Translations under genes and position numbers: made by a program
Notes under the pieces: model-generated
What the model saw: only the letters and a program-made list of their open reading frames with translations
Told to the model about the DNA's origin: nothing
Databases searched by the model: none
In this document: piece after piece, positions 29,495 to 50,657 of the stretch
How the letters are laid out: the number at the start of each line of letters is the position of its first letter
Position numbering within the stretch: position 1 is the first letter of the stretch
From: Escherichia virus TH55
DNA: 64,000 bases
Reading direction: 5' to 3' (one strand)
Sequence record: MT446421.1

Positions 29495-29516
29495 AAAAAA
29501 GCCCGCAATGCGGGCT
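29495..29516 (-). terminator. rho-independent terminator
   Basis: Minus-strand RNA AGCCCGC-AUU-GCGGGCU followed by U6. Confidence 0.65.
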
Positions 29517-30072: not shown

Positions 30073-30094
30073 ACGTTTCTCTTTAGTTGATTTA

Positions 30095-30124
30095 TAAAAA
30101 AGCCCCAACCTTTCGGAAGGGGCT
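30095..30124 (-). terminator. rho-independent terminator
   Basis: Minus-strand RNA AGCCCC...GGGGCU stem with internal loop followed by U6; between 30162 stop and ATG at 30072. Confidence 0.55.
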
Positions 30125-30161
30125 ATACCTTGTCGGGGTTCCACCTGCAAGGCAAGTGTTC

Positions 30162-30545
30162 TTATCCGCGAGCGAATGCCATTGCAGCGCGTTCGTTAGC
30201 ACGGTCGGTGATGTTCAAGAATTTATCACGAGCGATTTCGATTGGAGCACCAACCCAGTCAGCAGCACCATTACCTGGAGACTGTTTAGGGCGAACCATA
30301 TAAGTTGAAACTTTGGAACCGGCTAGTTTGGCACCAGGTGCCGCGGCATTTTTAACGTCTTTAGCTTTGATGCCAAACCCAGTTACGATACCCCAAGAAA
30401 CGCCATTAACTGGTTTCTTGAACATAACACGGTCACCAATTGAAACACCGGCTTTTTCTGGAGCCACTAAAGAAAATTTACCAGCTTCAGTCAGTACGGA
30501 TTCGGTGATGGTATTGCGATTTAAAAATTCTGCATATGTAAGCAT
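30162..30545 (-). CDS. putative capsid-targeted (internal-protein-like) protein (about 127 aa)
   Basis: N-terminus MLTYAEFLNRNTITE resembles CTS (MKTYQEF..E); minus-strand TATAAATA at 30576-30583; start could be 30557. Confidence 0.5.
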   Translation of the reverse strand: MLTYAEFLNRNTITESVLTEAGKFSLVAPEKAGVSIGDRVMFKKPVNGVSWGIVTGFGIKAKDVKNAAAPGAKLAGSKVSTYMVRPKQSPGNGAADWVGAPIEIARDKFLNITDRANERAAMAFARG

Positions 30546-30575
30546 TTTGTTTTCCATTATTAGGGTTGTTGTTAA

Positions 30576-30583
30576 TATTTATA
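30576..30583 (-). promoter_or_regulatory. late promoter TATAAATA
   Basis: Exact late consensus on minus strand just upstream of CTS-like gene 30162-30545. Confidence 0.5.
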
Positions 30584-30590
30584 TTCCATA

Positions 30591-30650
30591 GTACCGGATG
30601 CACCATCCGCTCGGATTTCTCATACTACCGGACGCACCGTCCGCTCTGGA
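30591..30650. repeat. tandem pair of 34-bp units each forming a 6-bp hairpin
   Basis: TACCGGATGCACCATCCGCTCGGA / TACCGGACGCACCGTCCGCTCTGGA; stems CGGATG-CAC-CATCCG and CGGACG-CAC-CGTCCG differ by a compensatory T-A to C-G change. Confidence 0.55.
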
Positions 30651-30781
30651 AAAACTCCGTAAAAGGGTGCGCCGTTTCAGCTGTGATATAAGGGGGCATC
30701 AACAAATCGTAAAGATTTATTAATGCCAGTCCTTAAACAGGGAACTTCAGTCCGACGACTTACCGGTAGCGACCCGGTTTC

Positions 30782-31021
30782 TCATTCAATTGTAATAGCT
30801 AATTTGACTTTAACAACCTTATAATTGGAATCAAGGTCATTGAATTCCATAAAATTTGTTGCTAATCTGCGAGTCGGGAAACTTAGATATTTATTATGCT
30901 CAGGTGGAGCGGTTAATGCAAACCATGGGACTTGTTTATCATTTTCATCAAACTCATCAAAGCTATAAACCAACTCGTTGTTGGTTATATCCATAACTGC
31001 ATATGATTCACTAATAACCAT
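30782..31021 (-). CDS. hypothetical acidic protein (about 79 aa)
   Basis: ORF trimmed to M16 so it does not overlap tRNA-Arg. Confidence 0.4.
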   Translation of the reverse strand: MVISESYAVMDITNNELVYSFDEFDENDKQVPWFALTAPPEHNKYLSFPTRRLATNFMEFNDLDSNYKVVKVKLAITIE

Positions 31022-31036
31022 AATATCCTCGGTAAT

Positions 31037-31113
31037 TGGTCGGGGTGGTGGGATTCTAACCCACAACCTACGGTTTAGAAGACCGTTGCTCTATACAATT
31101 GAGCTACACCCCG
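31037..31113 (-). tRNA. tRNA-Arg (anticodon UCU)
   Basis: Hand-folded cloverleaf: 7-bp acceptor CGGGGTG/CACCCCG, D-stem GCTC/GAGC, anticodon stem ACGGT/ACCGT with loop CUUCUAA, T-stem GTGGG/CCCAC, encoded CCA; T-loop is UUAGAAU (A at conserved C56 position). Confidence 0.75.
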
Positions 31114-31189
31114 GGTGGCCCCATCCGGACTTGAACCGGAAACCTGCCAGTTATGAGCCGGATGCTCTAACCAATTGAGCTACAGGGCC
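31114..31189 (-). tRNA. tRNA with CAU anticodon (Met, or Ile if lysidine-modified)
   Basis: Hand-folded: acceptor GGCCCTG/TGGGGCC (two G-U pairs), D-stem GCTC/GAGC, anticodon loop CUCAUAA, T-arm TCCGG-TTCAAGT-CCGGA; abuts tRNA-Arg with no spacer. Confidence 0.75.
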
Positions 31190-32691: not shown

Positions 32692-32946
32692 TTATTTTTT
32701 AGGGATACGATAGTAACGCATCTCAACATCTTTCTGCTTGTGCCACTTTTTGATAAGGTCTTCAGAACCTTTAATAGTAACGATGTCATAGCGACCATCA
32801 TGCGATACTTCAGCACTTAACTGCATGAAGTTGTCTAGTGAACGGCGCAATTCCTCATTAGAAAAACTACCACGCGGGGAACCAACATAAGCAAACTCAA
32901 CTTTTGCATCTGCGGCTTCGTTAATAAATTCTTGATAAGTTTTCAT
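32692..32946 (-). CDS. internal-protein-like capsid-targeted protein (84 aa)
   Basis: N-terminus MKTYQEFINEA (CTS). Confidence 0.6.
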   Translation of the reverse strand: MKTYQEFINEAADAKVEFAYVGSPRGSFSNEELRRSLDNFMQLSAEVSHDGRYDIVTIKGSEDLIKKWHKQKDVEMRYYRIPKK

Positions 32947-32971
32947 GTTGTCTCCAGTAGTTGATGAGATA

Positions 32972-33001
32972 ATTATACTGCAGTTATCCCATCGCGTATA
33001 C
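32972..33001 (-). promoter_or_regulatory. possible early promoter
   Basis: Minus strand: -10 TATAAT, -35 GTATAC at 18-nt spacing; same leader motif. Confidence 0.4.
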
Positions 33002-33002
33002 T

Positions 33003-33245
33003 TTATTTTAAGTCTTCCAGACGTTTTTTCATCTTGGTGCCATTCTTAGCAATCTCGCCGGCATCAGAACAAAGAGCAAGGAGAGCTTTAACTTTACCCT
33101 GGTCGCCTTTAAAAGATGATGCATCTACTGAATCAGCAAGTTCTTTGATACGTGCAAACAGGCGCTCTGCTTCAGCAAGGGCTTGACCAAGTTTAACTTC
33201 CATACCATGGGAAGATTCTGTTATAAATGTTTGATAAGTTTTCAT
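33003..33245 (-). CDS. internal-protein-like capsid-targeted protein (80 aa)
   Basis: N-terminus MKTYQTFITES (CTS-like). Confidence 0.6.
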   Translation of the reverse strand: MKTYQTFITESSHGMEVKLGQALAEAERLFARIKELADSVDASSFKGDQGKVKALLALCSDAGEIAKNGTKMKKRLEDLK

Positions 33246-33253
33246 TTGAAATC

Positions 33254-33526
33254 CTATTTTAGATAAATTGCATATTTTTTATAACCAGCCGTCTCATGGC
33301 GAAGACCCTTGTCATTGGCAAAACGCTCAATGTTATTAATTTGGTTCTGGTCAAGTTCTGAAATGTCAAACGCAAAAAAGTTGCGTTTGTTACCAATTGT
33401 TATATGGTCAGTTAAGTCAATGCTATACAGGTGATTGATATTGTCAATCATAGCTTTGACTGCTTTACTAATTTTTACTTCTTCATTCAGTTGTGACTCG
33501 TTGAAAAATTCATTGAAAGTTTTCAT
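33254..33526 (-). CDS. internal-protein-like capsid-targeted protein (90 aa)
   Basis: N-terminus MKTFNEFFNES (CTS-like). Confidence 0.55.
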   Translation of the reverse strand: MKTFNEFFNESQLNEEVKISKAVKAMIDNINHLYSIDLTDHITIGNKRNFFAFDISELDQNQINNIERFANDKGLRHETAGYKKYAIYLK

Positions 33527-33534
33527 AAGAAACC

Positions 33535-33867
33535 TTATTTATAAAGTTTTGCCAGTTCTTTACGTCCGCGTGCAGACATAATAAATTGTTCATCGCCAAT
33601 TTTAAAATAAGCCATACCGCCGTCAACAGCGATACCAATTTCTTTAGTACCTTCTTTGCCTTTCCACTTGCCACCAGATTTCAGGACAGCTTCAACTGCA
33701 GCTTTGGAATATTTGGACGTTTGAAAACGTTCATTACCAATCTGAAAGAAAACACCATCTGCATTTTTGGTTAAACCAAATTTCAGAGAGCCTTCACTAT
33801 CATCAATTGATTTGGTCTCATTGATGGCGGATTCGGCTAAAAACTCGTTGTAAGTTTTGATGTTCAT
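33535..33867 (-). CDS. internal-protein-like capsid-targeted protein (110 aa; position of T4 ipI)
   Basis: N-terminus MNIKTYNEFLAES (CTS-like); early promoter 33903-33931; adjacent to 57B as ipI in T4. Confidence 0.6.
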   Translation of the reverse strand: MNIKTYNEFLAESAINETKSIDDSEGSLKFGLTKNADGVFFQIGNERFQTSKYSKAAVEAVLKSGGKWKGKEGTKEIGIAVDGGMAYFKIGDEQFIMSARGRKELAKLYK

Positions 33868-48846: not shown

Positions 48847-50657
48847 TGAAACAGAATTTAAAAATTGGCAATATGGTTGATGATGGTACTGGTGATTACC
48901 TTCGTCTCGGCGGTCAAAAAATAAATAATAACTTTGATGACCTTTATTATCAGCTAGGGGACGGTGAAAATCCCCATGCAGCTGGTGCATGGAAAACTTG
49001 GACTACGCAAGAAGGTACCGAGTTGTCCGCTGTTATGGGCCGAAGCTATACCATCGATACATCAGCGGGTGCCGTTCGAGTCGTCCTTCCGAAAGGAACA
49101 ACTCAAGAATACAATTATGTAATTCGCTTGCGTGATGTGTTTGCTACCTGGCAAATCAACCCGGTGACAATTGTTCCTGCAGTCGGGGATACGATTAAAG
49201 GCTCACCGAATCCAGTAGAAATTAAACGCAACTTAGCTGACCTTGAACTTGTATATTGTTCACCAGGTCGTTGGGAATATATCGATAATAAACAAGTCGA
49301 TAAAATTTCAAATAACGACGTTGCCACAGTTGCATCCCAACAGTTTATTGCCACCGAAGGACAAACTGACTTTATCAATGTGTTTGGTGCTATTCCATAT
49401 AGCGTATCGAACTTAGAAGTCAAACATCGTGGTAACGACCTGTTTTATGGTAAAGATGATATTTTTGACCCGGTGAATGCTGAATTTGGTTCCCCTGGTG
49501 CAAACCCTGGTGAAATCGTTGCGCTTGATGGTAAAAGCATCCGTCTGAAAATGCCATGTGCTGAAGGTGATACTGTTATCATCCGAACATTTAATGATGG
49601 TATTGCTCAATGGCGTAGTTCGTATAATCGTCGTGATATACTTGTTCGTAGTCAAGACAGGACCAAAGAAACAACAATTAATGGTTCTTTGATTGTTACA
49701 GATTTGACAACCAAACACACCTTTACAATTGAAGAACTTGGTATTTCTCCTGGTAGCCCAATTAACCCAAACGCATGTCAGGTATTCATTAACAGTATTT
49801 TGCAACATCAAGCTGGTACTGCGGGAACTCCAGTATTTTATTGTGAAGGTGCACAAGGTTCTACTGCTGCAGAATGTAGTGCAAATGGTGGTAGCTGGTC
49901 TGAATCAAACCAGGATTATTTGCTGCAATTTGATGATGATAACCGTATCGAAGGCATTAGCATTTACCGTGAATTTGAAGACGGTGATATTCTGTCAGTC
50001 ATTTGGTACAATAACGATATCGGCACAACTATGACCATGGATGAAATCCGTGATGAGACTGATACTCTTTATGTTTCTCAGGGAAATACGTTGAGCCTAA
50101 CCGGTCGTGTGCGTATTACAGATTTTGATAATCCGTTTGCACCAAACGTTGAACCAGTCGGTCTTCAGGAAGTTGTTCCATCTTCTGTTGGCGTTATCTT
50201 TGAATTATTCTATCCGGTCGGTACAATTTACGAAAATACGGTTAACCCAAATAACCCGGTTACTTATATGGGATTTGGTTCATGGAAACGTTTGAAAGAA
50301 CGTGTAATTGTTGCCTGGTCAGACGACCCTGCCTCAAACTTCCATACAAACAATAATGACCTGGATTCTGGTGGTAACCCACAAGCGACAGCAGGTGGTA
50401 CAGGTGGTAGCGTTGAAGTTCATATTAAAGATATAAACGTACCTAAACTTGAAACTGATGAGAAGGTTTTAGTTGTTGATGATAATGGCCCGATTGTTGT
50501 CGGTGGTTGTCAGGTAGACCCAGATGCACAAGGTCCAGCCTATACCAAATACAGAGAAGACAAAGCCACCATTAATCAGGCGCAAGACCCTCAAGCTCAA
50601 CCGGTTTATACAATGCCTCCATATTTGATTGCTCATCGCTGGGTAAGGATTGCTTAA
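48846..50657 (+). CDS. 10: baseplate wedge / short-tail-fibre attachment protein gp10
   Basis: 603 aa (T4 gp10 about 602); ATGA coupling. Confidence 0.85.
   Translation: MKQNLKIGNMVDDGTGDYLRLGGQKINNNFDDLYYQLGDGENPHAAGAWKTWTTQEGTELSAVMGRSYTIDTSAGAVRVVLPKGTTQEYNYVIRLRDVFATWQINPVTIVPAVGDTIKGSPNPVEIKRNLADLELVYCSPGRWEYIDNKQVDKISNNDVATVASQQFIATEGQTDFINVFGAIPYSVSNLEVKHRGNDLFYGKDDIFDPVNAEFGSPGANPGEIVALDGKSIRLKMPCAEGDTVIIRTFNDGIAQWRSSYNRRDILVRSQDRTKETTINGSLIVTDLTTKHTFTIEELGISPGSPINPNACQVFINSILQHQAGTAGTPVFYCEGAQGSTAAECSANGGSWSESNQDYLLQFDDDNRIEGISIYREFEDGDILSVIWYNNDIGTTMTMDEIRDETDTLYVSQGNTLSLTGRVRITDFDNPFAPNVEPVGLQEVVPSSVGVIFELFYPVGTIYENTVNPNNPVTYMGFGSWKRLKERVIVAWSDDPASNFHTNNNDLDSGGNPQATAGGTGGSVEVHIKDINVPKLETDEKVLVVDDNGPIVVGGCQVDPDAQGPAYTKYREDKATINQAQDPQAQPVYTMPPYLIAHRWVRIA

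Follow-up and report, generated by a model that had tools for sequence, protein, structure and literature searches.

The window, which is the whole 64,000-nt stretch of Escherichia virus TH55 DNA that was analysed (MT446421.1), is 100% identical to Escherichia phage UPEC07 between positions 29500 and 32000, and over the same region is 92-98% identical to other Gapriverviruses (T4-like, Straboviridae). In the order of minus-strand transcription, this region carries a tRNA with a CAU anticodon (31114-31189), tRNA-Arg (UCU) (31037-31113), an 80-aa ORF (ORF80, 30782..31021; phrog_33509, function unknown), a 224-bp gap and an ORF that ends at 30162. The two tRNAs form the upstream part of a same-strand stable-RNA cluster, and ORF80 lies between them and a homolog of rnaD. 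The CAU tRNA is called 'Met' by ARAGORN and tRNA-Ile2 (CAU) in the related record EAWsc9, and it may be a lysidine-type tRNA-Ile. In TH40 the 80-aa ORF is absent and a tRNA 3′ end (…TCGACCA) directly abuts rnaD, as in T4 and RB3, an arrangement that shows mosaicism directly upstream of rnaD.

An earlier note on this DNA had drawn attention to tandem hairpins in the 224-bp gap, which it described as free of ORFs. The gap is not featureless, as about 120 nt of it is an unannotated homolog of rnaD, the T4 species 2 stable RNA (30665..30785, minus strand; located by BLAST and alignment), and it also contains a late promoter at 30583-30576. A BLAST search with the gap matched window positions 30782-30666 to 732 phage records, with rnaD annotated in RB3 and Aplg8. 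Homology to T4-type rnaD stops at 30665-30666, which is the rnaD 3′ end, and the homolog finishes in ...GCGCACC-C versus ...GCGCACCA in T4-type phages. The association with the small stable RNAs of T4, which the same note had raised, is borne out by this neighbouring rnaD homolog at 30785-30665; it does not extend to the hairpins, which are homologous to neither rnaC nor rnaD. Between the rnaD 3′ end and the first hairpin is a U-rich single-stranded spacer, CUUUUACGGAGUUUUUCCA (30647..30664, minus strand), conserved in relatives apart from small indels or substitutions, and we regard it as a candidate site of endonucleolytic 3′ processing.

Annotation of rnaD is likewise missing from UPEC07 and from the other annotated Gaprivervirus records that we looked at. 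The gene occurs among the Gapriverviruses as two alleles that have common 5′ and 3′ ends and a replaced central segment of ~60 nt, with 63-74% identity between alleles versus 96-99% within a same-allele group. The hairpin variants described below are incongruent with these two alleles, and the incongruence, as read from the aligned records, indicates recombination within ~100 bp. GenBank lists a 41-aa plus-strand 'hypothetical protein' (QUL77608.1, 30598-30723) that spans rnaD and hairpin A, and the ORF calls of other records over the same stretch are inconsistent, being on the opposite strand in M719 and over rnaD in UPEC01. The 41-aa ORF is probably spurious because other annotated relatives have no comparable call, and the same probably applies to all the ORFs called across rnaD (UPEC07, M719 and UPEC01, reaching the hairpins in UPEC07 and M719).

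Beyond the spacer are two direct repeats of 26 nt, 34 bp apart and 88% identical, each of which holds one stem. As first described, these are two 34-bp tandem units with 6-bp stems and 3-nt loops, and the stems differ by one complementary change per arm (T:A in one unit, C:G in the other). On the plus strand they read CGGATG-CAC-CATCCG (30595-30609) and CGGACG-CAC-CGTCCG (30629-30643). The CAC loop originally reported is correct for that strand, but because all the flanking genes are on the minus strand, the loop of the relevant RNA is GUG. In this RNA, hairpin A (30626..30646, minus strand; unit 2 of the earlier note) is GAG-CGGACG-GUG-CGUCCG-GUA, with the 5′ arm at 30643-30638, the loop at 30637-30635 and the 3′ arm at 30634-30629. 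Hairpin B (30592..30612, minus strand; unit 1) is GAG-CGGAUG-GUG-CAUCCG-GUA, with the corresponding parts at 30609-30604, 30603-30601 and 30600-30595. The rnaD homolog ends 18 nt upstream of hairpin A, and the late promoter starts 11 nt downstream of hairpin B.

Each 6-bp stem has 4-5 G-C pairs, placing both among GC-rich stem-loops, with folding energies of -9.3 kcal/mol for hairpin A and -7.9 kcal/mol for hairpin B. Single-sequence folding z-scores are unremarkable (-0.8 to -1.7, with -1.7 for a 76-nt fold), and lone perfect palindromes with 6-bp stems and 3-nt loops are not unusual, numbering 27 in the window versus 20.7 +/- 4.6 in dinucleotide shuffles. Given these two results, the case for the hairpins rests on comparative evidence. 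Neighbouring hairpins with the same loop were found in none of 300 dinucleotide shuffles. A larger helix enclosing hairpin A (CGGAG-UUUUUC / GAGAAA-UCCG) is broken in TH44 and displays no covariation, and we do not claim it.

Downstream of the pair, a perfect T4-type late promoter, TATAAATA, occupies 30576..30583 on the minus strand, ~30 nt before a start codon. The motif occurs at 14 sites in the window versus 5.7 expected, and here 9 relatives match both the promoter and the 5′ UTR at 100%. The promoter is followed by ORF127, a 127-aa ORFan (30162..30545, minus strand; N-terminus MLTYAEFLNRNTITE) with no match in Pfam or PHROG. Its start is the second ATG, at 30545; the first, at 30557, was rejected because a 1-nt indel in relatives (GGAAAAC / GGAAAAAC) puts it out of frame. 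The records with ORF127 are precisely the same 15 as those with the hairpins. Its protein has 99-100% amino-acid identity among them and is 100% identical in 14, while nucleotide divergence is 2-6% in 9 aligned relatives and must be almost all synonymous. Since the protein is near-invariant despite this divergence, ORF127 is a real gene under purifying selection.

The N-terminus MLTYAEFLNRNTITE resembles the capsid targeting sequence (CTS) of T-even internal proteins, as in MKTYQEFINE, MKTYQTFITE and MKTFNEFFNE from genes at 33526-32900, and from this motif resemblance the ORF127 product is probably a late, packaged internal protein. Internal proteins have only the leader in common (PMC3012670, PMC12373910). 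The three leaders belong to consecutive small genes on the minus strand of the window (32900-33545; MKTFNEFFNE, MKTYQTFITE, MKTYQEFINE), the first of which is preceded by TATAAATA at 33543-33536.

ORF127 is followed by a T4-type double stem-loop terminator with a U tract (30095..30154, minus strand; -27.3 kcal/mol, z -2.7), homologous to the sequence after rnaC in RB3 and HX01. In RB3, rnaC (139 nt) begins 5 nt after rnaD and is itself followed by the double stem-loop terminator. In the window the terminator is conserved but comes after ORF127, and it marks the right-hand boundary of a replaced segment. A block of ~500 bp, made up of the spacer, the two hairpins, TATAAATA and ORF127, thus stands in place of rnaC between rnaD and the T4-type terminator. 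This block is found in a subset of Gapriverviruses, and the hairpins are its upstream edge. Beyond it, the U run of the terminator merges into TATAAATC (30088-30099, minus strand), a one-off late-promoter-like motif before an ORF at 30072-29518 for which two records give different annotations, 'holin' and 'amidase-6 domain'. At the position of TATAAATC, HX01 has a perfect TATAAATA driving a 218-aa gene.

Comparison of relatives allowed us to examine whether the pairing itself is conserved. The comparative set comprised 15 Gaprivervirus and 4 Kanagawavirus genomes, which yield six distinct hairpin versions, a small sample related by descent. All cells are paired (100%) in the six versions, and double-sided changes are seen in 5 of the 12 pairs or, with the two hairpins taken together, at 5 of the 6 stem positions. 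The covariation score of 0.456 was reached by none of 500 shuffles (0.251 +/- 0.042), and pairing drops to 14-56% in a control with slid 3′ partners. RNAalifold, unaided, gives the same two helices as the consensus. The hairpin structure is therefore real and maintained by compensatory mutations. The inference of selection on structure, drawn earlier from the two units of this one genome, is supported more strongly by the relatives, in which 5 of 6 stem positions covary and none is unpaired. The covariance analysis proposed with it recovered the same helices, and the twin hairpins are conserved in related phages of both Gaprivervirus and Kanagawavirus.

Variation within the genus was compared in ten Gapriverviruses plus a metagenome contig. 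Two forms of hairpin A occur, CGGACG/CGUCCG and CGGGCG/CGCCCG, which differ by a double change of A:U to G:C at position 4. Hairpin B is CGGAUG/CAUCCG, and in TH44 and TH40 it is CGGGUG/CAUCCG, with G.U at position 4. This G.U is the only single-sided change, and on the plus strand it would be a C-A mismatch. We read the hairpins as minus-strand (sense) RNA because the G.U pairs only there and the neighbouring genes are all on the minus strand. The arrangement recurs in Kosakonia phage 305 and three Enterobacter Kanagawaviruses, with two hairpins 35 nt apart whose stems are CAAGCG/CGCUUG, and CGGACG/CGUCCG or UGGACG/CGUCCA. Their hairpins lie directly 5′ of a late-promoter-like GATAAATA and an unrelated 218-aa gene, the product of which has a CTS-like start (MLNFNEFITE). 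In the six versions the GUG loop, the G-C closing pair, the 5′ GAG and the 3′ G are invariant: 10 of 12 stem nucleotide positions vary, compared with 0 of ~9 loop, closing and flank positions. The 15-16 nt spacer separating the two hairpins shows only ~50-60% identity from one genus to the other. In Winklervirus and EcS1 there is one degenerate copy that has lost the clean hairpin fold.

The pattern of invariant positions also bears on whether DNA or RNA is recognized. The invariant GAG, GTG and 3′ G lack two-fold symmetry, and the stem bases that are symmetric vary both within one genome, from site to site, and from genome to genome, which disfavours a symmetric dsDNA operator. This asymmetry, together with the difference between sites of one genome, favours a strand-specific hairpin, most simply in sense RNA, over a dimeric dsDNA operator.

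The motif is confined to one locus. Searches by regular expression of the window and of the remainder of the 170-kb UPEC07 genome match here only, and BLAST finds one place per record, so a dispersed repeat family was rejected. A look-alike at 50134-50148 on the minus strand (CGTTTG-GTG-CAAACG, fitting C-NNNN-G GTG C-NNNN-G) is antisense within a 603-aa plus-strand ORF and lacks the GAG flank; we take it as chance. BLAST against 5,426 E. coli genomes gave no match to the hairpin element, and Rfam gave none overlapping 30585-30665 at E up to 10. Two IMG/VR pattern scans returned only VR20, the remaining matches being collagen-like GGTGC repeats or chance. In the JGI metagenome and GTDB scans there was one true Gaprivervirus-like contig, and the other matches were chance ones in high-GC genomes. 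The twin hairpins are absent from the tandem internal-protein genes at 33526-33003, and the idea that they are a general feature of internal-protein cassettes was rejected on the ground that other internal-protein genes in the window are without them.

The position taken by the hairpins is filled by other structures elsewhere among the T-even phages. The 218-aa gene has homologs in many T-even genera. In PG7, JS98, HX01, Marfa and fHe-Yen9-01 the tRNA/stable-RNA cluster has at its far end the late promoter of an internal-protein-like gene, and a GC-rich stem with a UUCG or GAAA tetraloop stands immediately before that promoter. A U run follows this stem clearly in JS98, HX01 and fHe-Yen9-01, as in a canonical terminator, and in HX01 the pre-promoter stem is the terminator that follows rnaC. 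Because other genera have a boundary hairpin there, we consider that the twin hairpins hold a transcript-boundary slot. The terminators of this slot (after rnaC in T4, RB3 and HX01; also in JS98, PG7 and Marfa) share the place: the last stable RNA precedes them, and TATAAATA with an internal-protein-like gene follows a few nucleotides further on. They are single GC-rich stems of 8-11 bp with tetraloops, whereas each of the twin hairpins combines a 6-bp stem with a triloop and lacks a U run. A separate non-coding block, conserved in Kanagawa-, Winkler- and Marfaviruses (…AAAGAATGAC…GTAAGGC…GACCTCTGGGTG…CAGAGCCGA…), is located after the tRNAs and before the late gene, with a covarying large stem-loop (AAAGGGTTCTC…GAGAACCCTTT) downstream of it; the block may represent a further small RNA that has escaped annotation.

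The reading that we prefer for the hairpin pair is a proposed RNA boundary element, which would act in 3′-end protection or processing of the stable-RNA transcript, or in attenuation of read-through. We give this reading a probability of about 0.45, slightly under even odds, and we infer each step of the mechanism that it would involve. The hairpins would form within the 3′ trailer of transcripts that are initiated upstream and run through the tRNAs, ORF80 and rnaD, while late transcripts would start downstream of them. A structured 3′ end of the stable-RNA transcript would stop 3′-5′ exonucleases and so provide a defined, protected end. The hairpins would also keep the U/A-rich flanks single-stranded and open for endonucleolytic 3′ processing of rnaD. 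In T4, RNase P cuts at the 5′ end of rnaC and thereby defines the rnaD 3′ end; here the RNase P site of rnaC is missing and the terminal A is not encoded, and for these reasons another route of rnaD processing would be needed. We suggest that a different endonuclease would cut within the U-rich trailer to free rnaD, whose end would then undergo trimming and repair. A second possible role would be the attenuation of early/middle read-through into the late gene. The boundary reading draws on the covariation, the minus-strand orientation, the position between rnaD and the late promoter, the slot analogues, the replacement of rnaC and the single locus in the 170-kb genome. Against it, the stems are short (-8 to -9 kcal/mol), a simple exonuclease barrier has no need for an invariant loop and flanks, and a compensatory change in a DNA quasi-palindrome can also come from templated (strand-switch) mutation. 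Winklervirus and EcS1 count against it as well, and as they carry only one degenerate copy, the element would be dispensable or replaceable. Among the small RNA, processing site and operator that were originally put forward, the processing site comes closest to this preferred reading, and the operator, in its symmetric dsDNA form, is disfavoured.

The same invariant positions could instead point to a protein-binding RNA operator, in which the GUG triloop, the G-C closing pair, the 5′ GAG and the 3′ G would be displayed to a phage or host RNA-binding protein that controls how the stable-RNA transcript and the late gene are processed, stabilised or coupled. Stems that vary at 10 of 12 positions around ~9 fixed loop, closing and flank positions, with a spacer of ~50-60% identity, are what such an operator would leave. 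The retention in both genera of two copies whose stems are unlike each other is also typical of hairpins read through loop and flanks. Nevertheless, we consider this unlikely, as there is no known candidate protein, the downstream genes differ between the genera (127 aa versus 218 aa), the hairpins are clear of the ribosome-binding site with no sequestration in the folding, the sample is small and related by descent, and Rfam gives no match. More speculative still is the idea that the GUG-triloop pair is a dedicated recognition module for a putative phage or host RNA-binding or processing factor that would set the 3′ end of the stable-RNA operon where rnaC has been lost. If true, the recognition module would be a new cis element in the maturation of T4-like tRNAs and small RNAs and a handle on rnaD/rnaC biology. 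An improbable role at the DNA level, compatible with one in RNA, is that the hairpins are the conserved 5′ junction of a late-promoter cassette, serving as a homology patch or hairpin site for shuffling internal-protein-like genes in a manner analogous to PeSL-mediated shuffling. A module of two hairpins, late promoter, RBS and CTS-like start is indeed placed ahead of unrelated genes in two genera, ORF127 and the hairpins are found together in exactly the same 15 records, the cassette took the place of rnaC, and the incongruence of hairpins and rnaD alleles speaks for recombination within ~100 bp; stem-loop and promoter motifs of the PeSL kind are documented recombination sites (PMC2839356). 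A homology patch, however, needs neither hairpins nor compensatory change, the G.U variant is a mismatch in opposite-strand DNA, a motif unique in the genome has no second copy to recombine with, and the other internal-protein genes in the window do without hairpins.

Two further explanations, an independent small RNA and a functionless quasi-palindrome, were ranked as less likely than the boundary, protein-recognition and DNA-level readings. The interval 30665-30585 sits at the rnaC position right after rnaD and is structured and conserved, as would be anticipated of a small stable RNA of ~80 nt with two hairpins that functionally replaces rnaC. It has, however, no rnaC-like sequence or fold and no T-arm-like or acceptor-like domain for RNase P, its 76-nt fold is unexceptional (z -1.7) with no Rfam match, and Kanagawaviruses have both rnaC-like sequence and the hairpins, all of which makes such a replacement quite improbable. 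We assign a similarly low standing to a recently duplicated quasi-palindrome kept perfect by templated mutation and without function. T4 is a classic system for quasi-palindrome-templated mutation, and the narrow taxonomic range and the decay in Winklervirus and EcS1 would suit this account, but the two-hairpin layout persists in two genera despite the ~50-60% identity of the spacer, and all six of the six versions are perfectly paired with invariant loop and flanks.

The locus shows how T-even phages rebuild the end of a tRNA/stable-RNA operon when the gene for a late, probably injected, protein is swapped in. The rebuilt end retains rnaD but not rnaC, and a compact module of two covarying hairpins stands before the late promoter. 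Should the hairpins direct 3′ processing or bind a factor, they would offer an experimental entry to rnaD and rnaC, the roles of which have been unknown for 50 years. The annotation is also corrected, in that rnaD is recognised and the ORFs called across it are probably spurious. The main yield is the corrected strand, the recognition of rnaD, the replacement of rnaC and a clean small case of covariation.

Comparison with known families of elements places the pair near several of them. As a canonical intrinsic terminator it has the GC-rich stem without the U run. The flanks 3′ of the stems, GUAGUAUGAG and GUACUAUGGA, contain no U tract and the terminator scan reports neither hairpin, so intrinsic termination is unlikely and this class was rejected. 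PeSLs are intergenic stem-loop/promoter composite motifs of T4-like phages (Arbiol et al. 2010, PMC2839356; Comeau et al. 2014, PMC4122927), with a proposed role of insulating the downstream cassette from upstream transcription and marking a shuffling junction (PMC2839356, PMC4122927). The twin hairpins are like PeSLs in having a stem-loop directly 5′ of the promoter, RBS and start codon of a small variable gene, and in lying at a replacement junction, where close relatives differ in gene content. PeSLs have a sigma-70-type early promoter, many dispersed copies beside ORFans in hyperplastic regions and usually a single GGGG...CCCC stem, whereas the present locus has the late TATAAATA, a single site and two triloop hairpins with invariant GUG. 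No sigma-70-like site was found at 30585-30660, and membership among the PeSLs was rejected for want of both an early promoter and dispersed copies. T4 rnaC and rnaD are the species 1 and 2 stable RNAs, of unknown function (PMC3014915). They belong to the same locus and the hairpins lie where T4 has rnaC, but sequence and structure are dissimilar; the hairpin interval does not align to rnaC, and membership in rnaC/rnaD or descent as an rnaC relic was rejected. A tRNA fragment was likewise rejected, the 7-8-nt match to a neighbouring tRNA being within chance by our estimate.

REP elements block 3′ exonucleases, and the pair shares with REP/BIME elements the form of short GC-rich intergenic palindromes between same-strand units and a superficial CGGATG...CATCCGG resemblance. 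The twin hairpins differ from them in a much shorter stem, in direct rather than inverted copies and in not being dispersed, and a host-derived REP/BIME was rejected with no match in E. coli genomes and direct repeats at one locus. In the late T4 genes e, soc, 49 and I-TevI, inhibitory hairpins sequester the Shine-Dalgarno or AUG (PMC3014915). The likeness is that the structure is found only in read-through transcripts, with the late promoter downstream of or within it. A translation-occluding hairpin was nevertheless rejected, since both the MFE and centroid folds of 30668-30520 leave GGAAAA...AUG unpaired with upstream sequence. The compensatory substitutions are those of a conserved structured RNA in the generic sense, outside the curated families of Rfam. 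In its action the pair is most like the stem-loop half of a stem-loop/promoter cassette, or a 3′ stabilising hairpin.
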